From NCBI GenBank assembly GCA_000004985.1, contig GG738875.1: 64,000 nt of DNA. One strand, 5' to 3'. The position numbers and the translations under genes were made by a program. Positions within the stretch are counted from its first letter, which is position 1. Each line of letters opens with the position of its first letter. Under the pieces are notes generated by a model. That model did not search any database, was not told where the DNA came from, and saw only the letters and a list, made by a program, of their open reading frames with translations. Shown here piece by piece: positions 8,156 through 60,576 of this stretch. Origin of the DNA: Naegleria gruberi (lineage: Eukaryota).

Positions 8156-8186
<31 letters not shown>

Positions 8187-12312: not shown

Positions 12313-13347
12313 TCATTTTTTAAGACTATCCAAGTAGGCATAGTAATCTGAAAATTCCCAGTAAAAGTAATCTCCACCATCTAGGAATGACGTATCAGAG
12401 TTTATGCTCAACTTCCAACTATCCTCTTCTAAATCAACCTTACTCAATCCACAAATTCCAGCCTTTACATTATGTCTATCTGCTTCTGGAAGAATTACTT
12501 CAATTTCTTTAATGACACTTGCTGCATGTGAAACTAGTAACACAAGAGTATTTTCATCACTCTCATCTTTTACAAAATTCCAAACATTATCCATAGCAAC
12601 CTTTGCTCGTTGTTCCAAATCCTCAACTGTTTCAATTGGTTTTTCATCTAGAAAATATTTAAAAGGATTACCATCTTTTGAAATGTAGGTGGTTTCGAAT
12701 TGTTTTCCTGTTATATATTCTCCTTGTTGAGAAATATTATTAGCTCTCGAAAATAATTCTTTAAATTGAGTTGAACTGGTTATTTCTTCCAAAGGTTGAG
12801 GTATATTCTCAATAGTAAATGACTTTTTCTCTCCAAACCATTCAGAAATTCCATATTCAACATATAGTTCATATTCTGCCTCCTTTTGAAAATCTCCATG
12901 ATTAGTATGTATTTCATTAACTCCTTTCAAAATGTATTGTGTAGTTTCCAAACATCTTCTATAAGGTGATGTAAATACTATTAATCTCTTCACTCCTCCA
13001 TTCAATTGATTATCCTTTCCAATATTAGCATTATCACAACAAGTCGATAATGATTCATTGTTTTTAATCAAAAAATTACAAGCCAAATGCTTTCCGAGTC
13101 TGAAAGCCAAATCAAATCCTCTACTTGATAATGATGGATTATGTAATGTATTTCCCTCAATTGTTATCCATTGATTAAATTCATCAGATCCTCTAATAAA
13201 ATCTATTTAAATTCATGATCAACACCATAACAACAACCATTCAATACATATTACAATAATTCCGATGATCATTAATACTATTATTATAAAATACAATCAA
13301 TACAAACCAATTCTTTCGCCATGTCTTGTAATGAAGAGTTGTTTCAT
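12313..13347 (-). CDS. histidine phosphatase, phosphoglycerate-mutase superfamily; two exons, approximately complement(13308..13347) and complement(12313..13190)
   Basis: A 40-nt first exon encodes MKQLFITRHGERIG and carries the catalytic RHGE motif, followed by a gtttgt donor. A 117-nt intron ends at tttattagag. Exon 2 continues SDEFNQW...NPSLSSRGFDLAFRLGKHL and includes LLVSHAASV, the second catalytic His region. The ORF-track entry 12313..13110 lacks the RHG exon. Confidence 0.65.
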
Positions 13348-13527
13348 TTTTTTCAATCAATATTATGGCTACACTGCATTGAAATGAAATACATTATGAA
13401 ATTGAACTGTTTTAATGCATTGGATAATGATGAGAATAAATTATGAACAACAATAGTAGAAAAGGGATCATTGTGAAACAAATAGTAGCAATATATAGTA
13501 GAAAAAACAAAATGGTTCAACATTTCT

Positions 13528-14727
13528 TTAATCAGCAGTAAAGACACAAATTTTACCATCCTCACCTGCAGTCATTAATGTAGTTGGATTTAAAACCTTA
13601 ACAGTTCTAATCAAGGAATCTTGAGAGTGACCACCTTTCATGACAGCAATCAATTCTTGACTCTTCAAAGAATCAGTCATCTTGAAAACATAGACAGCAC
13701 CCAATGAGCTAGCATGTAGCATGACACTATCATCACCAACAGAACCAGTTACTTCAATGAATGATAAATTATCTTGAGCATTCATATCCAAAAGTTCAGT
13801 ATAAGTTTGACTATATTGTCTAAAGTTGTGCCATTCCTCTTCACGTTTCATTACTCTATAATCAGCATATTCATCTTCTGTAGCATCATAAAGCCAAAAG
13901 TGAAGGTGATTAGTACTAGAGAGAGCATATAAACAATTGGTTGTTCCCAAAAATCCAAATCTTTCAACAGAATCCTCAATATTCAAGACACCATCAAGTG
14001 AATCTTCCAATTCTTCATAAACTTGTTTTTGATTAGACTCGGAAATATCATAAATATGTATCAGACCATCATCAGCACAAGAGTACAACATGTTATTGGA
14101 ACCAAATGAAACTTGATTAATGCAATCACTGTGAATTTCTTCCATCATTAAATAGGAAGACAATGGTGGATTCTTACGTAAATCACCAACAGCAATTGAA
14201 CCAGCTTGTGTGGTAGAACCACTTCCGACAGCATACAAGTGTCCATTACCAAAGGAAAGATCAATGGAATTTAATTGTGGAGCAAGTGGAGTAAATTGGA
14301 AAGATTGTGTACTCACACAACAAGATTGATCAGGCAATCTCAAATCCCACAAACGAACAGAGGAATCATGAGAGCAGGAAATTAACATATTTTCATTGGT
14401 TTTAGAGAAGGAAAGTCCACTGATTTGATTGCTGTGTCCCTTCAGGGTTCTGGTGTGAAGAATTTGTGGTGCTTGAATTTCATGAATTAAAATATCCGAA
14501 TTGGAGTGAGTAAAACTAAATGTTTTAAATCCTGTAAGAGGTGAAAATTGAATGTTGTAAATGTAGGTTGGTGTTTGGAATGGAGAGAGGTTGATTCTCA
14601 AATTGAGAGCAGGTGGAGAGGCATCTGTTGGTTGTTGTGTTGAGAGCATTTTTTTAAAACTGGGCAACTTTTTGTAAGCTTCAACAATATTAGAGAAGAT
14701 TGGTTCCGATTTTCTATCTGTCTCCAA
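13528..14727 (-). CDS. WD40-repeat protein
   Basis: 399-aa ORF with several WD-like units (SCSHDSSVRLWDL, LYSCADDGLIHIYDI, TAGEDGKICVFTAD). Confidence 0.55.
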   Translation of the reverse strand: METDRKSEPIFSNIVEAYKKLPSFKKMLSTQQPTDASPPALNLRINLSPFQTPTYIYNIQFSPLTGFKTFSFTHSNSDILIHEIQAPQILHTRTLKGHSNQISGLSFSKTNENMLISCSHDSSVRLWDLRLPDQSCCVSTQSFQFTPLAPQLNSIDLSFGNGHLYAVGSGSTTQAGSIAVGDLRKNPPLSSYLMMEEIHSDCINQVSFGSNNMLYSCADDGLIHIYDISESNQKQVYEELEDSLDGVLNIEDSVERFGFLGTTNCLYALSSTNHLHFWLYDATEDEYADYRVMKREEEWHNFRQYSQTYTELLDMNAQDNLSFIEVTGSVGDDSVMLHASSLGAVYVFKMTDSLKSQELIAVMKGGHSQDSLIRTVKVLNPTTLMTAGEDGKICVFTAD

Positions 14728-14878
14728 TGCAATTGATATTAGCTTGCAGAATTTCTATTACCTATGTATCCATTAACAACTAAAATCTTGACATAATCTT
14801 GTAAGTGTGGTATTTGAAGAAAAAGAATAAATATTATTTTTTAGAATTTTATATTTTAATGTAAAAATGGAGGGCAAT

Positions 14879-15211
14879 TTACTTCTTTTCAGCTTGCTTG
14901 GTTTGTTCAGCAATTCTTTCTTGTTGTCTCTTTCTGATTCTTCTCTTGAGATCTTCAATAGCTCTGATCTTTTTCTTGGCACGAGTAAGATCACCGAGTC
15001 TTCTCTTGGCGAATCTCAAAGCTCTCTTTTCAGAAACTTCAACGAGATCGACGAGTCTAGCTTCGTATGGGGCAACACCGATGGCTTCTTCGACGATATC
15101 CTTGACAACTCTGTGCTTGGATGGCTTTTGGGTCTTGGTGACCTTAGCTCTCTTGGTGGTTGGGAAACCCTTTCTACCAATTCTACCAACGGAAATTCCT
15201 GTAGCGACCAT
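14879..15211 (-). CDS. 60S ribosomal protein L36 (eL36)
   Basis: 110-aa basic protein (MVATGISVGRIGRKGFPTTKRAKVTKTQKPSKHRVVKDIVEEAIGVAPYEARLVDLVEVSEKRALRFAKRRLGDLTRAKKKIRAIEDL...) that matches the eL36 family along its full length. Confidence 0.85.
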   Translation of the reverse strand: MVATGISVGRIGRKGFPTTKRAKVTKTQKPSKHRVVKDIVEEAIGVAPYEARLVDLVEVSEKRALRFAKRRLGDLTRAKKKIRAIEDLKRRIRKRQQERIAEQTKQAEKK

Positions 15212-17080: not shown

Positions 17081-17161
17081 GTTGAGGTGGCCGAGTGGTT
17101 AAGGCGCCAGCCTGCTAAGTTGGTGGAGTAATCCGCGTGGGTTCGAATCCCATCCTCAACG
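17081..17161 (+). tRNA. tRNA-Ser (anticodon GCU)
   Basis: GTTGAGGTGGCCGAGTGGTTAAGGCGCCAGCCTGCTAAGTTGG...GGTTCGAATCCCATCCTCAACG. Anticodon loop is CTGCTAA, there is a long variable arm typical of type II tRNAs, and a GTGGNNTAAGGC D-loop. A T-rich stretch lies downstream. Confidence 0.9.
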
Positions 17162-17467
17162 TTTTCTTCTAGTAACTTTTTTTGAAAATTCACAATATAA
17201 AGGACATTCATCATTCTGTCTGTAAATTTAATTATTAAAAAATATACATTCAAACTGATCAACTAGTTCATCTTACTTGATATGTTTATCATGATAAACA
17301 CATGTTGCATGGTGGAGAGAAGGTCTTTAAGGGTGTGAAGTATATTATGAGATCAGATATAATGTATTCGAAACGTGAAGAATTAAAATACTAATTTCTT
17401 CTCTTGAATAATGATAAACTTGACAAACTATTCGAATCATAGTATTGAATATTCCAATAAAACTAAT

Positions 17468-19387: not shown

Positions 19388-20824
19388 ATGGTCAAGACAT
19401 TGCTCTCTGCTGCTGCTTGTGTTTTGTTCTTCATCACTACGACTGCTTGCATGGTTAGTGCCATTGCACTTCCTTCTATCCCAGTCAGCACACGAATTTA
19501 TATTGGTAAGTATATAGAGAAAAGGATATATAATATATTACTAACTAATTTATTCAATGTCATCATCATGATCATCATTAAATTTGTGTCATGATTGTTT
19601 GCACCAGGTGGTTCTTTCACTACCTTGAACGATACAAGATATAATAATGTTGCCTACTATGATTTGAAGGAAAAATCCTTTAAGGCCATGGAAAATGGTA
19701 CTAATGATGAAGTTAAGGTTCTTACTACTGATTCATATGGTAATGTTTATATTGGTGGTGCTTTCACTCAATTGGGAACCAAAAAGAGTGGTCCACTTGC
19801 TGTCTGGAATGTTTATCACTCTAAATGGGTTGATACTGGTCTTTCTTCATCAGATTTCACTCCTGGATCTGTGGTTACTGCCATCAGTACTGAATGTACA
19901 AACTCATATGATTTTGATTCGACACAAGGTCTTTTTCCTTGTGATATTTATATTGCTGGTAATTTCAAAGCTTCTGTCTCTGGTAGTAATGCAACAAACA
20001 TCTTGTACTATCACCACAAGAATAAGAAATGGGAAACACAAGCAACCTTGAATGCAACCTATATAACAGTTATTTCCAAGGTTGTCAATAACAATATGGT
20101 ATTTTATGGTGGTAAATTCCATGATGCCAATGGTAAAGAGTATGGTCTTGCCATGTATGACACTTCAAGTAGTTCGTGGATTATGATTGATGGTGTCAGT
20201 GGTGTTACTGATATCTATTATAATTCACATATTTACAGCTCAGATAACATGTTTATTTCTGCTTCTATTTTCGCTTATTCTCAATGTAAGGGTATATGTA
20301 ACTTCAATCTAAGGGATGGATCTTGGACAACACGTTCTGGTATTATTTCCACAGGTTCAGTTAACAAGATTAGATACATTAATGGTTTGTCTGCCTCAAA
20401 TGTTGGTTCAATATTTGTTGGTGGAAGTTTCATGAGTGAATCCTCTGTTGGGAGACGTGATGGAACTGGCGAGTACAGTGCCATTAGTACTAACTATCCT
20501 AAAGAAACTGTTCTAGGTATGGATATTTGTGGTTTGAAAGCTTATGACGTTACTGGTTGCAAAGGTGGATCAGTAGCTGTTGTTGGACAAAACTTCTTCA
20601 AGTTCTATGATGCTAATGATAACATGTGGAAGTCTCTCCTTTCTGAAAATGGGTTCGTATTGAACAGTATTAGTATTACCAATATTCCAGAAATGCCAAT
20701 ACCTTCACCAATACCCTCACCATTTCCAAGCAGTGTACAAGCTAAAATAAGCTCAAGTGAATGCAATAGTTTTAAGGTTCTTTTATTCATTACATTCCTT
20801 TTCATTTTTCATTTAATAAATTAA
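19388..20824 (+). CDS. secreted, probably GPI-anchored, beta-propeller (kelch/galactose-oxidase-like) protein; exons approximately 19388..19505 and 19608..20824
   Basis: Exon 1 encodes a signal peptide (MVKTLLSAAACVLFFITTTACMVSA) and ends ATT G|gtaagt. An intron of about 102 nt ends at tttgcaccag. Exon 2 has repeated Y.GG.F...W units (NVYIGGAFTQLG, MVFYGGKFHD, SIFVGGSFMSE). It has a Pro/Ser-rich stalk and a hydrophobic C-terminal tail consistent with a GPI signal. The ORF-track M at 19595 is a TTG. Confidence 0.5.
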
Positions 20825-23136: not shown

Positions 23137-24283
23137 TTATTTATGATGAATATGAATTTCTGTTCGGGTTGAATTGAAATATTGCTGAGCAGATGAAAAA
23201 CCCTTATCAATCATATCACTAATTTCCTTAGCATTAAATCCGATGAAGTAACCTGGAAGCCAATGTTTAGGTAGGAAGGCTCTTATTTGCACATTTGGAT
23301 CGTCCTTGTAAATTAATCGAGCATTTTCCAAATCTCTCAACAAGATATCCATTGCAGAGTTATAAATTGTTTCTAATAGAATGAAAGGTGTGGTATTGAA
23401 TTCGAATAATTTCGGATAAGGAACTGAATTGATAGCTAGAATCACATCAATTGTAATCCTACCCTGAACCTTTTCATGGGGAGACAATCTGTCTCCATTG
23501 GATTTTAATGAAGTGTAATTATTGTAAACTTTCCTAGTGAGATTCTTACACTTTTCAATGGCATCACTTATTGGAGTCATGTATTTCATTCCACCATCAA
23601 CGTACAACTCTCCATCAATATCAACAGCTGGGAATATTCCAGGAATAGCTGAGGATGCAACAATTGCTCGAATCAAATCCTTTTTCGTTTTGACATTGTC
23701 ATTAGTAAAGACACGATATGAGAATTTTCTAAGATTTGAGGCACCAATTCGCCAATATCTATTCGAAGTTGGAATTGGGGATGTGTGGAGAAGTGTGGAA
23801 TCATTAATGTTTTGATATAGATATTGGTAGAGAGGAGCAGTGTTGAATAGTCCTGATTCGTATAGGAAACCTTGTGCTAATCCGAATGGTTTCCACTCTG
23901 TGTATACATCTGAGGATTTGATGGAATGCCACTTGTCCAGAATGAATTGAATGGCATCTTTCTCTTTTCCTATTGGAAATTGAGCGAAAGAAAGAGCATT
24001 AATTGAACCACATGAATTTCCAGTTACTACATTATACTGAGTTTCTTCTTTCGGCCTATTTTCTACCAAATATTTCAAAACACCAACTGTTTGCATTTTC
24101 CATGCATCAGAATAGATTCGAATAAGTTTAAATTGTAAAATTTAGACAATGCTTACTCTCAAACGATCCTCTATCACCTCCTGATCCCAATGCAATTGCT
24201 CTACAATGATCCAAAACTTGAGAATGGGACACATTTATCAATAGAACCAAAAACACAACAAGTAATGGAATTAATCTTTGCAT
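23137..24283 (-). CDS. patatin-like phospholipase with a signal peptide; exons approximately complement(24157..24283) and complement(23137..24086)
   Basis: The upstream exon encodes MQRLIPLLVVFLVLLINVSHS-QVLDHCRAIALGSGGDRGSFE, a signal peptide plus the patatin Gly-rich oxyanion loop, and ends GAG A|gtaagc. A 70-nt intron follows. Exon 2 reads IGVLKYLVE...VTGNSCGSINAL (GxSxG nucleophile elbow) ...VDGGM (catalytic Asp). Confidence 0.7.
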
Positions 24284-24593: not shown

Positions 24594-25470
24594 TTGACCA
24601 AAAAGTTCTTTGAAAACAACACCAAAAAAATGTCATCACCAGAACCTATCCTCCACATCAAACCAAACCTTCTCCAAGAGAGCGAAGCCTTTTCCTCCAA
24701 ATTATATTCGCATCCAAACGAACGTGAATTATTTTCCTATTTTTCAATCATGAGGAAATGTGCACAGAAATCTCATCACCTGAATATTAAACAATTTGAT
24801 AGGGATTTAGTTAAAGAAGGACAATCAAAGTATCCACACGCTATGGAGGAGATTTTTGAGAGTGTTTGTGTTGGTAAGTTTCTGCATTGAAATAGTTTGG
24901 AATAGTTTGGAAGTGAATGAATTATTGGAAAGTGTTCCTTGTATTGGAAAGAAGTATCCGAGTGTTTTGGATGAAAGTGTGGACGAGAGAAGAGCTGAAT
25001 TTCTTCAGGATTTGAAATCTTGTGCAGAGTTTAAAACAGCTGCCGATAACAAGTTTAAATTAGTTTCGAATGATGAAGTTTTAACAAGAAATAATCATCT
25101 CGTGCAGAAATATGATCAAATGCTGGAACAAAACGGATCCATTACAAGATTTCCAACACTATACAGTCATTTACAACATTCTTCCACTACTGTAGATCAC
25201 TCAACAACAGTTGATCAACTTGTGAAAAAGCTCAACATTGAAGAACCAGTGAAGGAAGTTGCTAAGGATTTGCATTCATCAAGTCCTAACATGGTTTCTC
25301 TCATCTACAATTTATCAACTGCATTCTGTAGAGAACAAATCTTGGATTGTATCAAGAGAAGTTCTGCAAAATCATTGGATCAGGCATCATTTGTCAATTT
25401 GAGTACTTGCTTGGGAGGATCCTGCACTGCAAAAGTATTGGAATATTTGAGTGAAAAATCTCGTGAGTAA
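24594..25470 (+). CDS. hypothetical protein; two exons, approximately 24594..24873 and 24914..25470
   Basis: The first ORF ends at GTT G|gtaagt. A roughly 40-nt intron contains the aatagtttgg repeat. The second ORF continues in phase. No known domain. Confidence 0.35.
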
Positions 25471-28102: not shown

Positions 28103-28199
28103 GACGAATGTTTGTGTTGGTGTTTCATCATGATCATGATCATTTCTATAAATTTAATTGGTAGATTGTTATATTCATGTACAATAAATATTGGAAACT

Positions 28200-28852
28200 T
28201 TACCTTTGATAGGCCTTAACTAAGAATACAAAGTGAACCAACACAATAATTACTGAATATAATACATAGGTAAAGTAAATTCCACCCTCAACCCAATTTA
28301 GCTTTGTATTGAGAGGTTTCTTCATTTTCAGAGAAACCAACTCTTTAATATATCGAGCTGTGAACAAGATGAGAAGAATGGCCATATAAGAATAGGAAAA
28401 TACTTTGAGAACAACTTGAAAATCAATCTCACTCTGAGGCATTCCCTCATAGGAGTGAACTGTTCTATTCGCTTGCATGTACGTAATTGTCACAACCTTA
28501 ATCAACAAGAATGGTCCATCATGGTCGGAGAATTTTCAAAGAGAATTAGAGTTAAATGGCAGATCACACTTACCTTCATCATTGTGTAGAGATACATATT
28601 TAATCGACGATTACCGAGTGAGTATTTGAAAATCTTGCCCAGAATATCCTTCACCTGTTGAAATCTATTTGTGTGATCATGTTGATCCGAAATGGGCAAA
28701 TCATGATATTCCAATGTATCTGTTGAACCACTTCTTTCCCTTTGCTGCCTTATTGAATGGTTCTCACCCTCTTCCAGAGGTACTTCCCCTCTCATGGAGG
28801 AGGCATTGAATGGTACATTCATTTGACTATGATAATATTCATGGGTCGTCAT
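28200..28852 (-). CDS. hypothetical membrane protein; two exons, approximately complement(28574..28852) and complement(28200..28496)
   Basis: Exon 1 ends ...LYTMMK|gtaagt. A 77-nt intron ends at gattaag. Exon 2 reads VVTITYMQANRT... with two hydrophobic helices. The ORF track shows the exons as two separate ORFs. Confidence 0.45.
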
Positions 28853-39292: not shown

Positions 39293-41867
39293 ATGCCTTG
39301 CGGAAAGGAAGTAAATCATGTTCGGATAGAGCCCTCTAATATTATTGTTTGTAATCATCAGATGATGAAGGAGAATGGACCATTACCATCAACATCAACA
39401 TCATCATGTAAATTAAGGCACCATAAGGATGTACTACTGCTGCATCCAAAGAGGAACAAAACAAGAAAAGTTTCCAAGTGTAAAGTAGAAACAACACGTA
39501 GTGTTGATTGTGATGATTCTTCGTCTTCAGCATCACACTCGGTACCATCAATATTAAATGTGGTACTAAGGTTCAAAAGCCTATTCTTCCTCATATGCTT
39601 CTTCTTCTTCTTCTCACATGATACATGCCTTGTTGGAAAGGTAGAGGCGATAACATGCCCAAACGGAGTGGATAATCTTCACATACAAACAAATTGGGTG
39701 ATGCAAGCACAATATGGTGCCTTTCAAGCAGCAGTGGAGATGGGATTTTATGATAATGAATGTTTGAATGTTGTTATCAAATTGGGTATGTTGTACAAGA
39801 AATGTTGAACATTGTTGACATGATCTTACATCTATAACAATGTTAAATATTTTATGATAATGTTATCATTGTATTATGTACAACGATGATGTGGATCAAC
39901 ATGCCTCAAATTATATGATAAAAAAGGTGGACCTAATGCTGATCCAATAGCAGTAATTAAAAGTGGTGAAGCTCAATTGGGAGTTTTCTTATATTCGAGA
40001 GTTTTGGTCAATAGAGAGCTTGGCTTGGACTTTGTAAATATTTTCCAACATTATTCGAGAGGTGGATTGACAATGGTTTCGAGGACAGAATCTGAGATAT
40101 CAACCTTCCCACAATTCAAAGGGAAGAATATTGGATATTGGGTTGGTAATGATTACTCCCTGCTTGCCACAATGAAGAAATATAATATAGATACCAAAAC
40201 GGAAATGAGCTTGAGATTGCAATCTTTCTCAATTTTACCATTGTTGGAACAACCTGAAAGGTAGGTTAATATTTTCTTGACTTTTTACCTTTAATTTTTT
40301 TCTAAACATTTTACTATTAAGATATGATGTTATTATGGCAATGGGATATGATCAATTGGGAAATCTTTTGATGACTGCAAAGAAAGATTCAAGTGGAAAA
40401 CCGACTGATGAATTGTATTCGATTGGAAGAGATTTAAATATCTTGGATTTCAATGCAGAACAAACTGCCATGTTGGAAGATTGTATTGTTATGAACAAGG
40501 CTTGGTATGACACCAATCCAATCAAAAATAAGGACATTCTAGTTCGTTTCTTGAAAGCAACTATTAAGGGATTGATTACCTGTAGAGATTATGAAACCAA
40601 ATGTTTCAATTTAATGCCAGATAAGAGTGCACATCAAGTTTGGTCAGTGAGAGAAGTCAACAAATTAATTTGGCCTGCTAATTTAAATGGAGTAGGATGG
40701 ATGAATACTACCTTATTGAACAGAACTATAGACGTTGCTTACAAATTTGGAGTAATTAATTCATTAGCTTCAGCTAATGGATCTTATGATTCTCAATTTG
40801 TTGAAGAAGCCATGCGACAATTTAGAAAAGGACTAGCGGATGGAAGTATTTCAGATAAGTATTCTGATTTAGTAGCACCAAACTATGGTCCAACCTCACA
40901 CGAATTCTGCTATGACGTTACAACTGATACTGTTTTCATTTGTAATGGAAAACTTGATACCCTTCGTGTAACTGTACTTGTTGTAGGAATAGTATTGGGA
41001 AGTGTGATGGTAATGTCTGCCGTTTTGGGACTGTTGGCCATTGCGTTTGGCTTTACTCTCTTGAAGAAACGAAGAGAATTGCTAATGTTTGCCCCTACAG
41101 AAAAGGATGAATCATTCCCAATTGTTTTCACTGATATTCAACAATCAACAAAATTATGGAATGCCTTCCCAGAGGAAATGAAAATTGCTCTGGAACTTCA
41201 CAATCAATTGCTGCGGAGATTATTAGATGAATATGAAGGATATGAATGTAAATCACAAGGAGATGGATTGATGGTCGCTTTCAGAGATCCAATCAATGCA
41301 TTGAAATGGATGTTGAGAAGTCAAGTGGAATTAATGAAATTGGATTGGCCAGAACATTTAATGGATCAAGAACATGCAAAATTTGAGGTTGATAATGTTG
41401 GTAAAATGATATTCAGAGGATTGAGAGTGAGAATGGGAGGTGGAATGTGTAAACCAGATGTAAAAAGGGACAAAATTGGACGGATTGATTATCTAGGTAA
41501 TGATGTGAATCAAGCTGCAAGAGTTGGAAGCATTGCAGTGGGTGGCCAAATTGTCATTCATCAAAATTTGTATGAGGAAGTTTCACACAAACTTACGGAC
41601 CTCATCATTAGAGGAGAAACAAAAGCTCCACCGTTCAATTTTCTAGGTTTCTACATGCTTAAAGGAATTGACGGAGTTCATGCTCTGTATGACATATTGC
41701 CAGCAAGTATTCACTTTAGAAAATCTCTCTTTCCACCAATTTTCGATGAAGCAAAAGGACTTCTAATTAAGGAACTTGAAGAAACAGCAATCATTGCCAC
41801 AACCACAGATATAATGGACGAACCAGAAGCTCAAGGTTCAGGAGAGAAATCTAGCAATGAAATTTAA
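39293..41867 (+). CDS. receptor-type class III nucleotidyl (adenylate-like) cyclase A: cytosolic leader, TM1, NMT1/SsuA/THI5-like solute-binding ectodomain, TM2, cyclase domain; exons approximately 39293..39785, 39927..40260, 40322..41867
   Basis: Exon 1 ends ...NECLNVVIKLG|gtatgt. Exon 2 runs GPNADPIAVIKSGEAQLGVF...LLEQPER and ends AG|gtaggt. Exon 3 begins after ttaag with YDVIMAMGYDQLGN. The ectodomain has periplasmic binding protein (PBP) type-2 NMT1-like blocks (WVMQAQYGAFQAA, FPQFKGKNIGYWVG). A hydrophobic TM follows (LRVTVLVVGIVLGSVMVMSAVLGLLAIAFGF), then the cyclase domain: FTDIQQSTKLWN...CKSQGDGLMVAFRDP...GNDVNQAARVGSIAVGGQIVI. A Lys at the base-recognition position suggests ATP. There is no in-frame ATG immediately before the first hydrophobic segment, so the start at 39293 gives a roughly 100-aa cytosolic leader. 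Confidence 0.7.
39640..40700 (+). repeat. paralogous segment shared with 42410..43400; exons near-identical, introns diverged
   Basis: The last ~150 nt of exon 1, all of exon 2 and the first ~330 nt of exon 3 are about 90% or more identical at DNA level between cyclase genes A and B, with short divergent patches. Introns 1 and 2 differ in length and sequence (141 vs 75 nt; 61 vs 52 nt). Confidence 0.7.
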
Positions 41868-42241: not shown

Positions 42242-44540
42242 ATGATGATGGCAATATTCAATTCAAAAAGAAAGAATACATATCTGCTGCATCAAATAGG
42301 GCTTGTTGATGATATAAAGAAAATGAAATTATATTCTTTTCATCAAGGAAAGACCTTATTTACAACCTTCTTATTTATTGTACTACTTTTAATTGTGATG
42401 ATGATCAATTGGGTAGAGGCCATTACTTGTCCTAATGGTGTTGATAATATAAATATACAAACAAATTGGGTGATGCAGGCACAGTATGGTGCCTTTCAAG
42501 CAGCTGTTGAGATGGGATTTTATGATAATGAATGTTTGAATGTTGTTATCAAATTGGGTATGTTGTCATGTGTATTGTACTATTAACCTTGTTGTTACTG
42601 ATCTGGTGTTGGTATCTTCTCTTATAAAATAGGTGGACCTAATGCTGATCCAATAGCAGTAATTAAAAGTGGTGAAGCTCAATTGGGAGTTTTCCTATAT
42701 TCGAGAGTTTTGGTCAATAGAGAGCTGGGCTTAGATTTTGTAAATATTTTCCAACATTATTCGAGAGGTGGATTGACAATGGTTTCGAGGACAGAATCAG
42801 GGATTTCCTCTTTTCCACAGTTTAAGGGGAAGAATATTGGTTATTGGGTTGGTAATGATTACTCCTTATTAGCAACCATTAAGAAACATGGAATGGATCC
42901 AAAAACAGAAATGAGCTTGAGATTGCAATCTTTCTCAATTTTACCATTGTTGGAACAACCTGAAAGGTAGGTGTCTTTTAACTTGGATTTGTTGTTTTAT
43001 TAATGCTAAACTATTAAGATATGATGTTATTATGGCAATGGGATATGATCAATTGGGAAATCTTTTGATGACTGCAAAGAAAGATTCAAATGGAAAATCA
43101 ACTGAAGAATTGTATTCGATTGGAAGAGATTTAAATATCTTGGATTTCAATGCAGAACAGACTGCCATGTTGGAAGATTGTATTGTGATGAACAAGGCAT
43201 GGTATGACACTAATCCAATCAAAAATAAGGACATTCTAGTTCGTTTCTTGAAAGCCACTATTAAGGGATTGATTACATGTAGAGATTATGAAACAAAATG
43301 TTTCAATTTAATGCCAGATAAGAGTGCACATCAAGTTTGGTCAGTGAGAGAAGTCAACAAATTAATTTGGCCTGCCAATTTAAATGGAATTGGTTCATTG
43401 AATGTTTCTCGTATCAATCAAACAATTGATATTGCTTACAAATTTGGAGTTATTAAATCGTTAGCTCCAGCCAATGGATCCTACGATTCTCAATTTGTGG
43501 ACGAAGCTCTTAAGCACTTCAAAACAGGACTAGCCGATGGAACAGTCTTGAATACCTATTCTGATTTAGTAGCACCAAATTATGGTCCAACCTCACACGA
43601 ATTTTGCTATGATCTAACAACTGAAACAGTTTTTATTTGTAATGGAAAAGTTAACTATTCAAATGTTATCATCGCTGTCATTGTTTCAGTTTTAGGATGT
43701 GCCCTACTGGTTGCTGCAATTATTGGTGCCTGTGCATTCATTGTTTGGAGAAGGCACGTGGCAAGAAGGAACAGAATTCTCGTCTATGCACCAACAGAAA
43801 AGGATGAATCATTCCCAATTGTTTTCACTGATATTCAACAATCAACAAAATTATGGAATGCAGCTCCTGATGATATGAAAATTGCTCTCGAGCTTCACAA
43901 TCAACTACTAAGAAAATTGCTTGCAGAGTACGAGGGATATGAATGTAAATCACAAGGAGATGGATTGATGGTCGCATTCAGAGATCCAATCAATGCTTTG
44001 AAATGGATGTTGAGAAGTCAGGTGGAATTGATGAAATTAGATTGGCCAGAACATTTAATGGATCAAGAACATGCAAAATTCGAAGTTGACAATGTTGGTA
44101 AAATGATATTCAGAGGATTGAGAGTGAGAATGGGAGGTGGAATGTGTAAACCAGATGTCAAAAAAGATTCCATGGATAAAGTTGACTATTTCGGCAATGA
44201 TGTGAATCAAGCTGCAAGAGTTGGAAGTATTGCAGTGGGTGGCCAAATTGTCATTCACGAGAATTTATATCACGAAATCATGACAAGACTTTCTGAGCTA
44301 ATATTCAGAGGTGAAACCAAGTCACCTGTCGTTAACTTCCTTGGGCCATACTGTCTTAAAGGAATTGAAGGTGTGCATGTCTTGTATGATATTCTACCAG
44401 CTAGCATTCAAAACAGAAAGACATTATTCCCAACTGAATGTGATGAAGCTAAGGGAACATTGTGGAAACCAAGTGACTCGGATGGAAATACTCCACAACA
44501 ATTAGTCGATCAATTAGAAAGCAAACGATTTGAAAAATAA
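42242..44540 (+). CDS. receptor-type class III nucleotidyl cyclase B, tandem paralog of A; exons approximately 42242..42557, 42633..42966, 43019..44540
   Basis: Same three-exon structure as A: donor gtatgt after KLG, exon 2 GPNADP...QPER, donor gtaggt, exon 3 YDVIMAMGYDQLGN.... The N-terminal signal/anchor is MKLYSFHQGKTLFTTFLFIVLLLIVMMINWVEA. The TM is IIAVIVSVLGCALLVAAIIGACAFIVW. The cyclase domain is near-identical to A, and the C-terminal tail differs. Confidence 0.7.
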
Positions 44541-45761: not shown

Positions 45762-45762
45762 T

Positions 45763-46642: not shown

Positions 46643-49600
46643 TTAATAGTTTACAGCAGGTTTTGTTCTAGGTTCGTAATCTAAGGAGAGCTTGTAAAGT
46701 TTGTCTTCGTCCATATTGTGAATATTCTTGAGTCTTTCTTGTAGCTCTGGAACATTTTGGAGGGAGTATGGAGTTTGTTGATAGGTTTGGATGTCTCTGA
46801 TGAGCATGGCAAGTTTTCTTCTCTTGATGAAATTAATCTTATCATTGAGAACGTTTGGATTACCATCTTCGATAAATGTCAAATCAGTGAGAAAGACTCC
46901 AATGTATGGTATACATGGTGGTTTAACATAGAGAATGGCATGTCTGATAGCTCTAAAGTTATTGTCACCACTAATGATGGCCAGTAATTCTTCATGATCT
47001 CTTCTACTTTCGCTCTTGAGTGCTTCCCATGTCTTTTTAAGTCTGTGAACTGCAGAATTTTGTAAACCACTGACAATTTCAAAAACAGCATTGAAATTAT
47101 TCAATTTTCTACACTCTTCAGCAATTTGAATCATCTTGGTGAGGATTGTCTTTCTTTCTTTAAGACTTGGTTCGCTCAAAATCTTGGTTGCAACCCATCT
47201 ACTGACACGATTGAACCAAGTAATCATTTGGAAGATGTTATAGGCCTTTTCCTCTCTTGACTCCTTATTCCATGATTGATTCAAACATTCCTTTGGTCTA
47301 ATTGATTTAAACATGTTATATTCAATGAGAGTTATTTGTCTAGCAATTTCAGCACTTGGCCATTCTAGAATATCAAACTTGGTCAAATCATCCTTTCCTG
47401 GTCTATATTTTTTAGGAAACTTGACAGCTGTCTCAATCTTTACGAAAACCTCGACATTGTTTGTGGTAAGAGATTGTTGTCTCTTAATAGAATTCAATAA
47501 TTGGGTAGCAAAGTGTTTTCCTTGAGTATTTTCCATAACGGTACTCAATTTTTTAACCTTTTCTAATAATTCGGCATCATTTTCAAAGTCATGATAGTGA
47601 TTTTCAAGCCAGAATTTGATTACTTGGGTAACTCTGAGTCTGACTTGTTGTAAAACTTCTTCTTGCCACTTGGCAAACTCATTCTTTGTAATGGTTTTTG
47701 GATTTGGTGGAGGGAGATTATATCTGGAAAAAAGTCTATCCATCAAGTCATGTGGACTTGTGAAAGATCGGTAAGTGAGCAAGAAGGCATACAAATAGGC
47801 ATTATCATAATTTTTGTAAAAAGTTACACGTTCAATGAGCTTGTCCAAGGTTGCACACTTGATTTCCATGGCTTGATCAGATTCTTCATCTGTAGATTCC
47901 ATCCACATGATATTTTCTGGTGAATCCTCTTCATATTTTTGATTGGTTTGAGTAAAGTCATAGTCGTAGTAGTCTTTTGGATCCTTTTCTTTTTGGCTTT
48001 CTTCCTTTGGAATTTGAGTGACACTCATGCTCATGGCATTTGATGCTGGTTTGGAAAATTGAGCTTGGAATTTAACAAAATTGAAAATAAAGAATTGGAA
48101 ATCCAAATCAAAGTGATGTTTCAAAATTTTTGATTCTTCTTCGGATGTTACAATAAAACGAATATCTAACAATGTAGATGAAAGACGATTCTCAATGCAA
48201 TGTTCAAATGTTGATCTGAAAAAACATCTGGCAGCTGCCACCCATTGACTCTTCAAAAGACCGTATTGTGGAACAATCTTTTGGCCATTATGAGCTAAAA
48301 ATGGTGCAAATGCAATAGATTGACATTCGAGAGTATCAACACATTCCAAAGCATTTCTTACAGCATTACTAAGGGAGTGATAAAATTTGGTTTTGGTCAA
48401 CTCGTTAGAATCCAAATTCACGCCATCCAAATCAGTGGAATTCTTTGATGGAATAACATGTAAAGATGAGCTGCCAGTAAAGAGATGGATCAAATGACAT
48501 TGTCCATTAGTACGATTTGGCATTGAGAAAGTACTGCAAAAGACTTCTCCCTCATTGAGTCCACGGGAGGCCTTTTCTTTTTGAATATATTCCTTACATT
48601 GTTGAATAATATCCTTGGAAAAGGTTTCAGTTGCATATTTGGCAGCACCATTAGCCTCTCCTTCACAACTCAATTTAGAGTCATTACCAACAACAAATCC
48701 TTGAACAAGCTCAGAAAACAAGTCATCCATTTGAATGAGTGATACTCTGGCACCTTTAGTTACTCTCTTTCCATTGGATGATGACTGTTGAGATTTGTTG
48801 AAAATTGGATTGACAGGATATTCAATGATCAGTTTGCCGTTTGTTGTCTTATCCTTTTCTCTGATTGATTGTACTGTTGTTGTTGCTGCTGTTGTGGAAG
48901 ATGAAGAAGAAACACTATCCACAGATAAATTTGATGATTTCTTCTCAATTGTATTTGTGAGGGATGAAGATGAATTGGTCTTGTTGAGAATTAGAGGAGA
49001 TTCCTTTCTGAATACTGATGGAAGTCTCTTCTTTCTTTCTCTTGCATTTACCAATAACTTGTCAACATCCAAATGATCATTAACAGTCGATGAATCATTC
49101 GAGGATAGATCATCATTTGAAGCAGTCAATCCAGGAAGTTTGAAACTTGATCCACTCGAAAGTGTTGTACTCGATTCAGAATCTGTATCTTCTTCAGTAT
49201 CACTGGAAACTAGTGTCTCTTCGTTTTTCTGTTAAGAGAGAATTTTTTAACACATTGTTATTAAAATTGAAATAGGATGTTTTTTTAACTAACCTTTGTT
49301 TTTCCTAATTGAGAAATGTTATGTTCCTGTATTTTCTCATACTTTTTCACAAGTGAATCAATTTTAGAATCGTGATGGGAAAGTTGTGTATTCTTTGGAT
49401 TTGATTTGACAAGTTTTTGAAGTTGTTGATTCTCTTGTTCTAACAACTGATTTTTGTATTCTAATTGTTGCTTCTCCTTTGTCACGATAAATAATTGTGT
49501 TTGTAAAATGTTAATTTTCTCGACCATTTCCTGAACTGACATTTGACTTCCAGATGTTATTGTTTTTAAATTGTTACTTGGTTTTGAAGTCAGAATTGAT

Positions 49601-49824
49601 TCTGCTGATCCTGATGCCGATGTAGCATTATTTGTTGTTGTCTTTGGTCCACTGATTTTAAAACTTTGTGAAGTTGTTGGTGTTTGATTATTACCTCCCG
49701 TTAATGTTTTAAAGAATGTTGATTTGAGTGAAGAAGATATGGAAGGAGAGGTTGATGATGATGTGGTTGGTATGGGAGAGTTGTTGGAGGACGAAGGAGA
49801 AGGCTGTGTTGGCCGAAATGACAT
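46643..49824 (-). CDS. Ras guanine-nucleotide exchange factor (RasGEF N-terminal plus Cdc25 catalytic domains); exons approximately complement(49294..49824) and complement(46643..49229)
   Basis: The ORF-track entry 49285..49824 (an S/T-rich region with a coiled coil) ends ...QLGKTK|gttagt. A 64-nt intron ends at ctcttaacag. Exon 2 continues in phase (KNEETLVSSDTEED...LTASNDD...) into the 46643..49129 ORF, whose tracked M is a TTG. The catalytic Cdc25 region includes PCIPYIGVFLTDLTFIEDGNPN and FNAVFEIVSGLQNSAVHRLKKTWEAL. Confidence 0.75.
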
Positions 49825-53680: not shown

Positions 53681-53798
53681 GGCTACGGCCATATCACGAT
53701 GAATGCACCTCATCCCGTCCGATTTGAGAAGTTAAGCATCGTCGAGCCACATCAGTACTGAGGTTGGAGACAACTTGGGAACCTGTGGTGCTGTAGTC
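53681..53798 (+). rRNA. 5S ribosomal RNA gene
   Basis: GGCTACGGCCATATCACGATGAATGCACCTCATCCCGTCCGATTTGAGAAGTTAAGCATCGTCGAGCCACATCAGTACTGAGGTTGGAGACAACTTGGGAACCTGTGGTGCTGTAGTC aligns along its length with eukaryotic 5S, including box A AAGTTAAGC and the loop E/box C region. The terminal helix pairs GGCTACGG with CTGTAGTC. Length is about 118 nt. Confidence 0.85.
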
Positions 53799-53810
53799 TT
53801 TTATCTTTTT
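53799..53810 (+). terminator. RNA polymerase III oligo-T terminator of the 5S gene
   Basis: TTTTATCTTTTT lies immediately 3' of the 5S 3' end. Confidence 0.6.
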
Positions 53811-55311: not shown

Positions 55312-58300
55312 TTAATTAATTTTCTCAATGATCGTGTCAGTGCTGTAACTTGCCAATTCTAAATTACTTTCCTTATCTTTCATAGTTCTCTTCAATTTTC
55401 TAGATTTCATTTTCAATTTCTGATAATAATCAGGCCAAACCATATTCTTAAAACCTGTCAAGGCAATATCAATTCCCAAACAAGTGACAGTACACAACAA
55501 GAGAATTAACCAGAATTTAGGAGATCTCATTGCCTCAAACCAAACACTTGTCATACTTGATTGAATTATTGTGAAAATTACAACGAAAATAACAAATGAC
55601 AAGATTGAAAATATCATTCCAGCATGATGAATAATTGTCAAATGCTCCATTTCAATATAACACTTGAGAGTAATGACAACAAACACGCAGGTATACAATA
55701 AGGCACACATTGCCCAAATTCCATCCGATTGACCATTTGTTAGTAATCCTGGCTCAGCTGCATAGGTACAGAAAAAGAAAATGATTGTTCCATGTAGGAA
55801 TGCTCCAAATACCCATTTTGAAAAGGTATACCAATTGAAAATGTTATCAGTTTTCAATTTTCTATAAAGAATAGGTCCAGTTTCTGAATCTTCCAAATAA
55901 CTTTCATCAATATCCTTTTCGAATAATCCAAAAACAATTGGGTTGACCAAAGTAAATACATAATTTTGAAATGTCAAGACCAATGATTCAATATTCAATT
56001 GTCCAGAGCACAAATTATAAAAGAAATAAATGGTCATCAAGCTAGACACTACATTACTCTTATAGAATGAATATTGAATAAAGACAGCTGATCTCTTATA
56101 TGAATATCTTCCATGAACTGCCAGTAATCGTTTCAACATGTGGAATTTAGGAATGGCATAGTCAGACGATTGTTTTGCAAGAGTTCCTTCTTTTCCTATA
56201 ATACCTACACCTACTTGAGATTTCAAAATCATTGGAACTGAAATAATTGTAATGTTGTTTTGTAAAATTGTTGAAAAATGTGAAAAAACTTACCATCGTT
56301 GGCACCATCACCAATAGCGAGACAATTCTTTTTCAATTTGTGTCTTGCCAATTCGACAATTCTTGATTTTTGCTTTGGAGTTGATCTGAAACAAATGACA
56401 GTTTTGCATTTTTGTAATAATTTGACAAGTAATGAAACAGTGTCAGGTTTTTCACATATATGTAAGAAATGGCCTTCTACTGCGAGTTCTACATTATCCC
56501 TTGATTCAGTTTCTTGTAAAATTTCGGAAAGTTTCGAATGAATATTTTCCTCTTTAACACTGGAAGAATCTAAAAGTATTAAATCAGATTCCTTTTCGAT
56601 GAGTTTTGAACATCTTGCAATGTGTAAAGCAGATTCTTTGGCATCTCCTGTCAACATCCAAATCTTTAAACCAGCTTCTGTGAAAAATTTGACAGTTTCT
56701 GGAACCAATTGTTGTAAACTATTAAAAATATTACAAAAAATTGTAAACGTGCATTACTTACACATCTTCAATACCAGTTACTCCACAAGGTAATAAACCA
56801 ACTTCCATTTCCTTTTCCAATCTTTGAGACAATTCCAATTGTTCATCATGATTCAAACTCTTTGTTTTCAAAGCATGATAATCTTCCATCCACTGTTTCA
56901 ATTGATCATTTCCCACAAATTTAAAAGCAAACACCAAGGATCTTAAACCATCTTTAGAAAATTCCATAACTCTATCTTCCATTAATTGTCTATTTTCCTT
57001 GGCTGATTCTTCCATGAAAGGATAAACGAAAGAATCTGCTCCCTTAGTAAGACACAACACAATGTCACTTTCACCATTCGAATTGTGAATGGTTGAAGTG
57101 GCTGATTGAATGATGGGATAGTCGTTGAGGAAATCTTTTGGAATTTTGAAGAGAACTGACATTCTCTTTCTCTCTGGTGTAAATTCCAATTCTGCCAATC
57201 TTTCGAATGTGTATTCCTTTTCGAATAGGGAGAGAATTGTCTTTTTGTCTGAGAAATACTTGAGAATGAAACCGTAATTGGAAATTCCTTGAACCAGAGC
57301 TACTTCATCTGATGATTCTCCATCATAGGTTTCCCTTTCTTTCGACTTTCGAATAGTTACATTGTGACACAGTGAAATGTTCAACATGAGCATTAATTTA
57401 GTCAGGGAATCTCTCGATTGTTGGCCATTTCTAATCGATTCCTCAATACTTGAATCACAATTAAACGAAGAATGTCCAACAGCCCAAATCTTTTTCAATT
57501 TCATTTCATTTTCAGTCAATGTTCCAGTCTTGTCTGTCAAAATCAATTCAATTCTTGCCAAATCAGAATGCAAATCACTCGAAATTGCAGCAGACGAAAC
57601 AAATTTCTCCTCTCCAGTATGAACATCCATCATTCTATGAACTAGCTCATTATCTGCTGAAATGAACCTCGCTTGAATAATCTTTAAAAATTCCAAAACA
57701 ACAAACAATGAAGCAGGCACGTAAACATTCAAAGCTGCAATATAAACTAAAATCGAGTGAACCACCCATAATCCATCAGAAATTCCCATTGGTTTCAATT
57801 TACCCAAATAGGCAACATTTTTCGAATAAGTAAATTCATAGTATGCATTCAATATTACTAAAATGGAAATAATGACTGTCATGAAAATGAAAAGGACAAC
57901 AGTAAAGAAATTTCCCATCAAATTAACGTGAGAAAATTTGACTTTTGGATTTGGAACATTTCTTGCAACTTTTGTATCTTTTCCTGCATAGATTACAATT
58001 CCATAAATATGTGGAGATTTGAGTTTTGCTCCTTTTAGTAGTAAATTTTGATGATTAATACCAAATTCATTATTTTCACCTTCTAAACAAACACTTCCTT
58101 TGAATTTGTAAAGATTGTGATCTGGCATTTGACATTTAATCCATCCTTTCAAATCTTTTAACATGTCAATATTATTAAATTTAGATAAACTATGAGGAGA
58201 ATATCTACTTTTCAATGCAGATTCACCATCCAAATTAGCTGTTTCAATATTACAACTTCCATCCTCAAAATTAGACGAAACTAACAGCAAATCAGCTGGA

Positions 58301-58911
58301 AATTCTTCATCTTCCTCAATTTTCACCAAATCTCCAACTTTAACATGTTTCGTATAAATTTCTACAAAGTCCAAATATTGAGTAATTGAATTCCCATCCT
58401 GTTTAAGAGATCTACTCTTCAGAACGAGAACTTTCTTGTGATTTACTTTTCGATCTTTGAGATAACGAAAGAAATCTTCACCTCCCTCTCTTACAATATT
58501 TACAACAAGGATGATGATGATTGGGATTTGTGCTAGGATTGGACTTGAAGGCCAAACTCCTGGAATCCAAGCAATGATGGCGATGAAAAGAAAATAAAGG
58601 TTTCCGATTTTTTTCATTTGTTGAAATAAGTTTAGGATTAGAAAATTCCACCAAGTATACTATCGGAAAGGTCAGTTTCAGAATGTTTCATCAGATGAGT
58701 TGAAATTTAAAGATAAACTCCGATTCGCTCGCGAGTAGATGAAACATACCTTTGTAGTACTCAAATAATTCGTAGACGAAAATTGACGAAACGGAAGGAA
58801 ACCCCACTTTTTAATTCTTCTCTTCTTATTGGTTTGCCAATCATTGATCGATACAACATAGGGATAATTATCTTGTTGCTGGTGATCAAAACTAATGGGT
58901 TTCTCTTGCAT
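55312..58911 (-). CDS. P4-type ATPase (phospholipid flippase); four exons, approximately complement(58750..58911), complement(56761..58659), complement(56294..56717), complement(55312..56237)
   Basis: Exon 1 (MQEKPISFDHQQQDNYPYVVSINDWQTNKKRRIKKWGFLPFRQFSSTNYLSTTK|gtatgt) joins YTWWNFLILNLFQQMKKIGNLYFLF, reconstituting the P4 N-terminal consensus N.I.T.KYT...FLP..LF.QF.R.AN.YFL. Exon 2 carries the phosphorylation site DKTGTLTEN and ends GIEDV|gtaagt. A 43-nt intron follows. Exon 3 (LQQLVPETVKFF...GLKIWMLTGD...AIGDGAND) ends G|gtaagt. A 56-nt intron follows. Exon 4 reads VPMILKSQVGVGIIGKEG...SDYAIPKFHMLKRLLAVHGRYSYKRS and the C-terminal TMs. Confidence 0.8.
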
Positions 58912-59636
58912 TTTTTTATCTGAAAGGTTTCACCTGAAGTTGACAGTGTAGAAACTTCCAACTGGTTAAAAGCTGTTCATATAAGAGATGTTTCCTTATA
59001 AATCAAATTATTGTCAAATCGTACGTAATCCGACTTTCGTCTCTGTTATTGGAAAGTAAATGAGTTTTTGTAATTGACATTCGTTTACAGTTATTGGAAA
59101 CTTACTTTACACAAAATAGTTATCCAGTTTAATGCCAGGCATTCATATCTAACTCCCACCATTTACTAACTATCCAATTCAAAGTTTAAATGATTTTAAA
59201 TAAAAAATAAATTAATTAAAAATGTAATTGTACAATTTTTATATTTACAGTTCAATTCTTTGTAAATAGAGATTCATCTTAGTAAGCCATTTAGTTGACC
59301 TATTCTTTCCACTGTTCGTCAAATTTCCGAACCAAATAAGGACTCCTAACCAAATGCATCTCATCAATATTCAAAAAAATTCAAAAAAATTCAAATCTTT
59401 CGCGAATCACACAACAAACATTCTGATTCAGATCGGCTTGCCTCCTCTCTGCGTATCTGTAGTGTTGTTCTTCAAGCTTCTTTTTGTTTTTGGTGTAAAT
59501 TGATTCCGAGAATTTTTGTGTGAGAATACAACACGAGAATATTTTGTTATTGCTCTTGTTTATTGTGTTCCTTTTTATTGTTAAAGTTGTAGTGGTAGTA
59601 GAGTAGTAGAATATATAGAGGGTATTGTTATTGAGA

Positions 59637-60576
59637 ATGTCGGATTGTGATTTTTTGTATAAAGGTAGGAAGAAGTAATTTTAGAAATATTAATATTTAA
59701 TAATTATTTGATGATTGTGATGATGAATGTATAATGATGAAATAATATTTGATGATGATAATTTTAATAATGTGTGGTGGTGAATGATGAATAGTGGTTG
59801 TATTGGGTGATTCGGGTGTTGGAAAATCGAATTTAATTATCAGATTTACAAAGAATATTTTCAATACACAACCAAAACCAACGATAGGTGTAGAATTTGC
59901 ATCAAAATCAATCTCGTATGATGGTGCTACGATCAAGGGACAAATATGGGACACGTATGTTGTTGATAATTTATATGAATTTAGTTGAATTTACAAAATA
60001 TTAATAATTTAATAATGATTGAATATATGTGTTTATTATCATGATTCAAGTGCTGGACAAGAGAGATTTCATGCTGTATCTGTTCAGTATCATCGTGGAG
60101 CTCATGGAGCATTGATGGTTTATGATATTACCAATAAGGAATCATTTGAACATTTGGAAAAGTGGTTTAATGAAATTAGTAAACAAGGAGAGGAAGGATG
60201 TATCTATATTGTAATCGGAAATAAGTGTGACTTGGCAGGTCAGAGACAAGTCACTGAAGAGGAAGGTAAAATTTTTGCAGAAAAGAGAAATCTACTATTT
60301 ATGGAAACATCAGCATTGGACTCGACAAATGTGGAGGAAGCATTCTCAGTGCTGTTGAAGAATATTTATCATACTAGAAAGCAAGCCAAACGAAATATTG
60401 AGGATGATGATATTTCAGAACCTATTCGAGTACCACTCCCATCTCAACCATCCATATCTCAGGATGATTTGGGATCGAGTTATAAAGTCAGTTTGGATGT
60501 GTCACATCAACATCGTGCGCAGATGACAGCTACACATCAAACAACTAGAACCAATAATTCAACATGTTGTAAATAA
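59637..60576 (+). CDS. Rab-family small GTPase; three exons, approximately 59637..59664, 59795..59954, 60050..60576
   Basis: A 28-nt first exon (ATGTCGGATTGTGATTTTTTGTATAAAG = MSDCDFLYK) ends G|gtagga. A roughly 130-nt intron follows. Exon 2 reads (V)[23 protein letters not shown]...[11 protein letters not shown]...IWDT and ends AC|gtatgt. Exon 3 begins after ttcaag with (T)[27 protein letters not shown]...GNKCDL...ETSAL and has a C-terminal CCK prenylation motif. It has Rab11-like RabF/SF motifs. The tracked Ms at 59794 and 60019 are GTG and TTG. Confidence 0.75.

Follow-up and report, generated by a model that had tools for sequence, protein, structure and literature searches.

The question raised by a 64,000-nucleotide (nt) stretch of Naegleria gruberi DNA (contig GG738875.1 of assembly GCA_000004985.1; the whole stretch is referred to below as the window) is why genes for recognisable eukaryotic proteins appear, in a bacterial-code list of open reading frames (ORFs), as separate pieces, many of which begin with unusual start codons. 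The answer to which we give a probability of about 97% is that the window genes are interrupted by short spliceosomal introns of the canonical U2 type (GT-AG), which are 40-141 nt long and AT-rich, with a GTAAGT-like donor, in the nuclear DNA of N. gruberi NEG-M (Heterolobosea). A preliminary description of the region between positions 12313 and 60576, made from the letters alone, had proposed a "micro-intron" architecture and reconstructed five genes, those of a Rab GTPase, a histidine phosphatase, a patatin, a RasGEF and a four-exon flippase; all five reconstructions could be reproduced to the base, and each is one open frame from ATG to stop. In the proposed mechanism, the spliceosome would remove the short GT-AG introns from pre-mRNA, so that a bacterial-code ORF list would break the genes into separate exon-sized ORFs, would invent TTG and GTG starts just after intron stop codons and would run on through the occasional in-frame, stop-free intron. 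We infer that each of the introns is actually removed from the RNA in vivo. The same description had regarded several entries of the ORF list as exons or mis-started ORFs and had pointed to GTG and TTG starts just after stop codons. The spliced models indeed restore frames and conserved motifs, and TTG or GTG is the first codon in 25 of the 56 ORFs with 100 amino acids (aa) or more, an artefact of a table-11 ORF caller.

The window has a GC (guanine plus cytosine) content of 32-39% from end to end, and its long ORFs encode typical eukaryotic proteins (Rab, RasGEF, P4-ATPase, an RBR ligase-helicase fusion, class III cyclases and the ribosomal protein eL36). The alanyl-tRNA synthetase ORF shares 78% identity with that of Naegleria fowleri and 72% with that of Willaertia magna. 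Twelve window products match EFC43xxx / XP_0026759xx proteins of N. gruberi NEG-M residue for residue, all of them on one 396,166-bp scaffold, and this identity to the deposited proteome assigns the window to the NEG-M nuclear genome. The published figures for N. gruberi, namely 33% GC, 1.7 exons per gene and a mean intron of 203 bp (PMC8296547), are compatible with the window; N. fowleri has 2 exons per gene and a mean intron of 126-144 bp, and its RNA sequencing (RNA-seq) reads were mapped with a 30-bp minimum intron (PMC8296547).

We catalogued 20 introns in the window, which span exactly the 40-141 nt given in the preliminary description. The median of 67.5 nt (n=20) lies below the published N. 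gruberi mean, and GC is 0.26 in introns vs 0.35 in exons. All 20 introns begin with GT and end with AG, and all three phases are represented. The donors are GTAAGT (nine cases), GTATGT (four), GTAGGT (two) and GTAGGA, GTTTGT, GTAAGC, GTTAGT and GTAAAG (one each), with G at +5 in 19/20, A at +3 in 18/20 and T at +6 in 17/20; the acceptors are TAG (8), CAG (6) and AAG (6). The six donor types listed previously all occur, but Rab intron 1 has GTAGGA rather than GTAGGT, the latter belonging to two cyclase paralogues, and the special tuning to donor variants that had been recommended for annotation is not called for by what is the usual GTAAGT-type consensus.

These properties are those of U2-type introns: the donor consensus is GTRAGT-like and complementary to U1 snRNA, removal of the introns restores the frame and gives gap-free similarity to intron-less homologues, and intron position and phase are kept between species while length and sequence drift (in alanyl-tRNA synthetase and RasGEF). 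With the U2-type introns of intron-poor, AT-rich protists they share the GT-AG ends, the GTAAGT-like donor, the AT-rich interior, the three phases, positions common to species and free lengths, and they differ in the frequency of AAG acceptors (6/20) and in the T at +3 of two donors (GTTAGT and GTTTGT). True micro-introns, known from ciliates such as Paramecium and Stentor and from nucleomorphs, are about 15-30 nt long. Short introns and a compact genome are common to those systems and the window, but the window introns spread broadly over 40-141 nt and include no narrow 15-30 nt class, so that the label "micro-intron" should be dropped in favour of ordinary short spliceosomal introns. Two other classes were considered and rejected. 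U12-type introns are defined by an ATATCC/GTATCC donor and a TCCTTAAC branch site, and the /RTATCC donor occurs in 0/20; for introner-like or transposon-derived families, an all-against-all blastn-short comparison of the 20 introns gave no inter-intron match at E < 1e-3.

Besides homology, the junctions were approached with a crude splice-aware dynamic programme trained on the codon usage of long ORFs only; brute-force GT..AG pairing of all ORFs was too noisy, and dynamic programming with codon-usage scoring took its place. The junctions that the programme returned coincide with those of the models in Rab, patatin, RasGEF, flippase introns 2 and 3 and both cyclases; it also fused adjacent genes and found neither flippase exon 1 nor the phosphatase gene. 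Throughout the reconstructed genes, Pfam domains are continuous across the junctions. The Rab11-like GTPase has the following structure (here and below, a slash inside a motif marks the junction).

59637..59664, plus strand: coding part of Rab exon 1, 28 nt, MSDCDFLYK plus 1 nt; N-terminus identical in the GenBank Rab (P0137)
59665..59794, plus strand: Rab intron 1, 130 nt, GTAGGA...ATAG, phase 1; recovered independently by dynamic programming
59795..59954, plus strand: Rab exon 2, from the P-loop to DT of DTAGQE; Pfam Ras
59955..60050, plus strand: Rab intron 2, 96 nt, GTATGT...CAAG, phase 2, splitting the DT/AGQE codon
60051..60576, plus strand: Rab exon 3, ending in the CCK prenylation motif; orthologues favour an uninterrupted ORF

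The Pfam Ras domain covers residues 9-169 of the spliced Rab (profile 1-161/162), and the alignment to human Rab11B (4ojk) is ungapped over residues 4-174 (E = 6e-60), both junctions included. The counterpart of the short N-terminus, MDCDVLYK, is conserved in N. fowleri, Willaertia and Acrasis.

A similarly short first coding exon was proposed for an Sts/UBASH3-like histidine phosphatase, in which it carries the catalytic RHGE.

13308..13347, minus strand: coding part of phosphatase exon 1, 40 nt, MKQLFITRHGERI plus 1 nt; Sts-2 alignment
13203..13307, minus strand: phosphatase intron, 105 nt, GTTTGT...ATAG, phase 1
12313..13202, minus strand: phosphatase exon 2; Pfam His_Phos_1, 27.6 bits

The position of RHGE on this exon is borne out by the alignment of RHGERID to RHGERVD of Sts-2 (3d4i), in which lfitRHGERiDfirG of the phosphatase pairs with ilviRHGERvDqvfG and D is the split codon; two full-length homologues in a representative library (P0166 and P0167) have a contiguous RHGERIDFI. 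The exon lengths of 28-40 nt are correct as coding lengths, but these are the coding parts of first exons with a 5' untranslated region (UTR) and not internal micro-exons. No phosphatase orthologue was detectable beside alanyl-tRNA synthetase at the N. fowleri locus examined (VFQX01000044, L001).

In the patatin gene, the exon assigned to the signal peptide and the oxyanion loop precedes the ORF that contains the nucleophile.

24157..24283, minus strand: patatin exon 1, 127 nt, signal peptide and GSGGDRG oxyanion loop; Pfam, PlpD alignment, dynamic programming
24087..24156, minus strand: patatin intron, 70 nt, GTAAGC...ACAG, phase 1; dynamic programming
23137..24086, minus strand: patatin exon 2, GNSCG nucleophile elbow and DGG; Pfam, PlpD alignment

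Across the junction, GGDRGSFE/IGVLKYL aligns without gaps to GGAARGLAHIGVLKAL of PlpD (5fqu).

The two remaining genes encode larger proteins, a RasGEF with a long 5' exon and a P4-ATPase (flippase) with three introns.

49294..49824, minus strand: RasGEF exon 1, 531 nt, low-complexity and coiled-coil N-terminus; GenBank EFC43247.1
49229..49293, minus strand: RasGEF intron, 65 nt, GTTAGT...ACAG, phase 0; GenBank identity, dynamic programming
46643..49228, minus strand: RasGEF exon 2, RasGEF_N and RasGEF domains; Pfam
58750..58911, minus strand: flippase exon 1, ending ...NYLSTTK; Pfam PhoLip_ATPase_N, ATP11C
58660..58749, minus strand: flippase intron 1, 90 nt, GTATGT...ATAG, phase 0
56762..58659, minus strand: flippase exon 2, DKTGT phosphorylation site; Pfam
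56719..56761, minus strand: flippase intron 2, 43 nt, GTAAGT...ATAG, phase 2; Drs2p alignment, dynamic programming
56294..56718, minus strand: flippase exon 3; Drs2p alignment
56238..56293, minus strand: flippase intron 3, 56 nt, GTAAGT...TCAG, phase 1, splitting GDGAND/V; Drs2p alignment, dynamic programming
55312..56237, minus strand: flippase exon 4, PhoLip_ATPase_C; Pfam

The spliced RasGEF, 1038 aa, is exactly EFC43247.1, and thereby the 531-nt exon already stands in GenBank. In the flippase, the N-terminal motif is split by an intron as described: PhoLip_ATPase_N covers residues 23-96, across the exon 1/2 junction, and junction 1 (sttK/YTwWNFL) is ungapped against ATP11C (7bsp). Junction 2 (GIEDV/LQQLVPET) is ungapped against AIEDKLQDGVPET of Drs2p, and so is junction 3 (GDGAND/V.MI) against the same protein.

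A further intron, just outside the range of the preliminary description, enters into the comparison between species.

9417..9553, plus strand: alanyl-tRNA synthetase intron, 137 nt, GTAAGT...ACAG, in FTNAG/MNQFK; GenBank EFC43151.1

This intron is found at the same codon and in phase 2 in three lineages, with a length of 137 nt in N. gruberi, 416 nt in N. fowleri and 40 nt in a metagenome relative (L003). The N. fowleri RasGEF orthologue contains a segment homologous to exon 1, and its intron, 203 nt (vs 65), is in phase 0 in both species and lies within two alignment columns. A closer relative is provided by an environmental metagenome contig (ENA ERZ929261, L002), a sister strain that aligns to window positions 8696-15142 with 98.6% identity to NEG-M and encodes an alanyl-tRNA synthetase with 100% protein identity. 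The alignment is 80.5% coding, yet 10/11 insertions or deletions (indels) fall in non-coding DNA (P = 7e-7 if placement is uniform), and the sole coding indel is 3 nt long and in frame. Four of the indels are inside two introns, those of alanyl-tRNA synthetase (5 and 3 nt) and of the phosphatase (an 8-nt deletion and a 1-nt insertion), while phosphatase exon 1 shows zero differences and exon 2 has 97% amino-acid identity and zero indels. Constraint is accordingly relaxed within the introns. In the same comparison, the segment 14626-14807, upstream of a WD40 gene, is hypervariable.

Deposited annotation provides an additional line of evidence. Exact-sequence look-ups gave identity of four unspliced ORF products to EFC43162.1, EFC43157.1, EFC43163.1 and EFC43242.1 and of five spliced models to EFC43247.1, EFC43151.1 (alanyl-tRNA synthetase, 957 aa), EFC43154.1, EFC43238.1 and EFC43158.1; GenBank exon structures are deduced here from such look-ups of protein sequences and not from exon coordinates. 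The NEG-M annotation (ACER00000000; EFC43151-EFC43247 on the scaffold) therefore describes the same DNA, with identical products for the unspliced ORFs and these five models, and the matching models are reported to be based partly on expressed sequence tags (Joint Genome Institute pipeline). It already includes the RasGEF 5' exon, both Rab junctions with the 28-nt coding exon, and the introns of 44, 45, 61, 137 and 141 nt, and both GTAGGT and GTTAGT are present among its donors. The genome had been framed as unannotated, but splice-aware NEG-M models thus already hold the RasGEF exon, the Rab junctions and several of the shortest introns.

Several observations weigh against this interpretation. 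YTRAY-like motifs occur in the last 50 nt of 14/20 introns, several of them too near the acceptor for a branch point, and the tract upstream of the acceptor is T/A-rich, with no strong polypyrimidine tract. The GTAAGT hexamer is found 25 times against 22 +/- 5 expected window-wide, i.e., at chance level, and the evidence for the junctions is therefore homology, GenBank identity, conserved positions and sister-strain indels, not hexamer counts. Scans of metagenome and metatranscriptome contigs, used as a proxy for transcripts, gave 0 matches to the spliced patatin and phosphatase junctions. The protein collection does not contain the exact products of the models for Rab, phosphatase, patatin, flippase, cyclase B, RBR-helicase and two uncharacterised genes, which means that in GenBank these genes either have other structures or are missing; for the flippase (3-exon), cyclase B and the 24.6-kb gene, guessed versions of the GenBank model likewise had no exact match there. 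Finally, three candidate introns are supported by frame logic alone.

24874..24913, plus strand: candidate intron, 40 nt, GTAAGT...GAAG, in an uncharacterised gene (24630/24750-25470); the sole in-frame GT-AG join and the least supported
28497..28573, minus strand: candidate intron 1, 77 nt, GTAAGT, in a three-exon membrane-protein gene (27863-28852)
28146..28203, minus strand: candidate intron 2, 58 nt, GTAAAG, in the same membrane-protein gene

The first of these genes has no Pfam match and no exact GenBank match, and for the membrane-protein gene Pfam and the exact GenBank look-up gave no homology support.

The alternative that survives best accepts the architecture and holds that at least one of the preliminary models is wrong in detail (a start, an acceptor or an unrecognised exon) and that GenBank is correct, in particular for patatin at its 5' exon and for Rab at its 3' end. 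We consider this unlikely. The GenBank patatin, EFC43243.1, is the 319-aa ORF from a downstream ATG, without the 127-nt exon, as this alternative would have it, and it matches the Pfam Patatin profile at positions 14-191 (86.1 bits); with exon 1 the match extends over positions 2-191 (99.7 bits), the exon contributing positions 2-13 of the profile (+13.6 bits) as well as the oxyanion GGxRG motif, aligned directly to the solved structures of the family. With the exon, patatin gains a predicted signal peptide and the oxyanion loop, and on these sequence comparisons the resulting model is better than that in GenBank. The GenBank Rab (189 aa) shares the sequence from MSDCDFLYK through both 5' junctions and departs after EEAFS, where the C-terminal 75 residues (VLLKNIY...STCCK) are swapped for 27 unrelated ones and the prenylation cysteines are lost. 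For this 27-residue tail no homology was found, whereas the ORF continuation matches Rab11 helix 5 and has a CC ending as in N. fowleri, Willaertia and Acrasis, which suggests that the extra Rab intron in the GenBank annotation is probably spurious. The exact flippase and phosphatase products, as noted, are not in the protein collection; against this stand their junctions, which are fixed by invariant motifs.

It is also conceivable, though highly improbable, that some of the introns are regulated by retention, in which case two in-frame introns, in a helicase-RBR gene and in a large PAS/cyclase gene, would give two isoforms each.

31527..31577, minus strand: helicase-RBR intron, 51 nt, GTAAGT...TTTTAG, in-frame and stop-free, GCNHM/T CCYCGQHFCWLC; Pfam IBR_1 gain
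1980-2024, minus strand: PAS/cyclase gene intron, 45 nt, in-frame and stop-free, inside GDAVN/TASRMES; in EFC43238.1
2471-2514, minus strand: PAS/cyclase gene intron, 44 nt; in EFC43238.1

The 51-nt and 45-nt introns can both be read through without a stop, and intron retention is reported to be the dominant form of alternative splicing across eukaryotes, N. gruberi included (PMC6142364; public N. gruberi RNA-seq data are on record there as PRJEB23822). Being in frame and stop-free, the 51-nt intron is hidden inside a 1736-aa ORF. Its removal restores GCNHMTCCYCGQHFCWLC and turns a truncated IBR_1 match of 19.5 bits into a full match of 42.6 bits, so that retention would disrupt the zinc-binding RING2/IBR; in the cyclase, it would disrupt the GDxVNxASRMES motif. 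Moreover, stop-free stretches of 45-51 nt are expected by chance among 20 AT-rich introns. Neither the spliced (1719 aa) nor the unspliced (1736 aa) helicase-RBR product is in the protein collection; the spliced PAS/cyclase, 1788 aa, is EFC43238.1.

That the interruptions are frameshifts and stops, due to pseudogenisation or assembly error, with coincidental GT-AG bounds, would fit the chance-level hexamer count and the negative junction scans but is next to negligible, given that every interruption runs from GT to AG with the +5 G in 19/20, that removal restores conserved motifs with zero gaps, that N. fowleri is interrupted at the same codon (alanyl-tRNA synthetase, as is the third lineage) or within two columns (RasGEF) by sequences of different length, and that the exons of the sister strain are intact while frame-breaking indels fall inside the interruptions.

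The reading as short spliceosomal introns extends to other genes of the window.

19506..19607, plus strand: Kelch/Rax2-like protein, intron after the signal-peptide exon, 102 nt, GTAAGT; spliced product of 444 aa = EFC43154.1
39786..39926, plus strand: cyclase A intron 1, 141 nt, GTATGT, the longest in the set; GenBank EFC43158.1, dynamic programming
40261..40321, plus strand: cyclase A intron 2, 61 nt, GTAGGT; GenBank EFC43158.1, dynamic programming
42558..42632, plus strand: cyclase B intron 1, 75 nt, GTATGT, at a position paralogous to cyclase A intron 1; dynamic programming
42967..43018, plus strand: cyclase B intron 2, 52 nt, GTAGGT; dynamic programming

The two cyclase genes (39293-41867 and 42242-44540, plus strand) are tandem paralogues, each with an NMT1/THI5-like periplasmic-binding-type domain, a transmembrane segment and a class III cyclase domain. 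Their exons are 84-90% identical and their introns occupy the same positions, with lengths of 141 vs 75 and 61 vs 52 nt and interiors that are not alignable despite the common positions. The cyclase A product from M39701, 654 aa, is EFC43158.1; GenBank thus begins cyclase A at an internal ATG (39701), downstream of a hydrophobic segment found in the longer ORF.

In N. fowleri, partial microsynteny links the contig containing alanyl-tRNA synthetase with window positions 46.6-53.5 kb and 9.2-12.3 kb: alanyl-tRNA synthetase there has the ubiquitin hydrolase, RasGEF and a small ORF as its neighbours, whereas the two blocks are about 35 kb apart in N. gruberi, which implies a rearrangement. Judging from accession numbering only, the interval 12313-14649 is left with one slot for the phosphatase and the WD40 gene, and some genes may be unannotated; similarly, between patatin and acyloxyacyl hydrolase (24630-28852), where there are four candidate genes, GenBank/UniProt numbering has room for one. 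GTAAGT at 59100-59105 and at 31028-31033 (both minus strand), just upstream of the flippase and acyloxyacyl-hydrolase starts and on the coding strand, could mark 5'-UTR introns. The window also contains tRNA-Ser(GCU) at 17081-17161 (plus strand), tRNA-Ala(UGC) at 8120-8192 (minus strand) and a dispersed 5S rRNA gene at 53681-53799 (plus strand; Rfam, 105 bits), between the ubiquitin hydrolase and an NHL-repeat gene. The GTAAGT at 17077 is a chance match and not a donor because it lies immediately 5' of tRNA-Ser and overlaps its first bases. At 17281-17391 (plus strand), 37 codons form an open stretch (…HGGEKVFKGVKYIMRSDIMY…) that is similar to the C-terminus of the prolyl-hydroxylase-like domain encoded at 37423-39129; the stretch may be a relic or a terminal exon.

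The short GT-AG intron architecture of Naegleria is already known, having been published since the 2010 genome paper and mostly annotated, and the finding is accordingly ordinary. It carries a caution, namely that a prokaryote-style ORF track laid over eukaryotic DNA splits genes and invents starts, which the preliminary description diagnosed from raw sequence. The practical gain consists of corrections to gene models. The annotation departs from the models given here in a patatin without its 5' exon, another Rab C-terminus and a cyclase A that starts from a downstream ATG, and it lacks the helicase-RBR, flippase and phosphatase products as exact sequences; of these, the corrections of use to curators of the N. 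gruberi annotation, and to anyone inferring secretion or catalysis from those entries, are those to the 5' exon of patatin and the C-terminus of Rab and, possibly, to the models of the flippase, phosphatase and RBR-helicase. Judging from this one window, the 2010 reference annotation of N. gruberi may systematically miss short coding first exons, a suggestion to which we would give slightly less than even odds; if it is true, genome-wide re-annotation with RNA-seq would alter the predicted secretome and, for a noticeable fraction of proteins, the catalytic competence.

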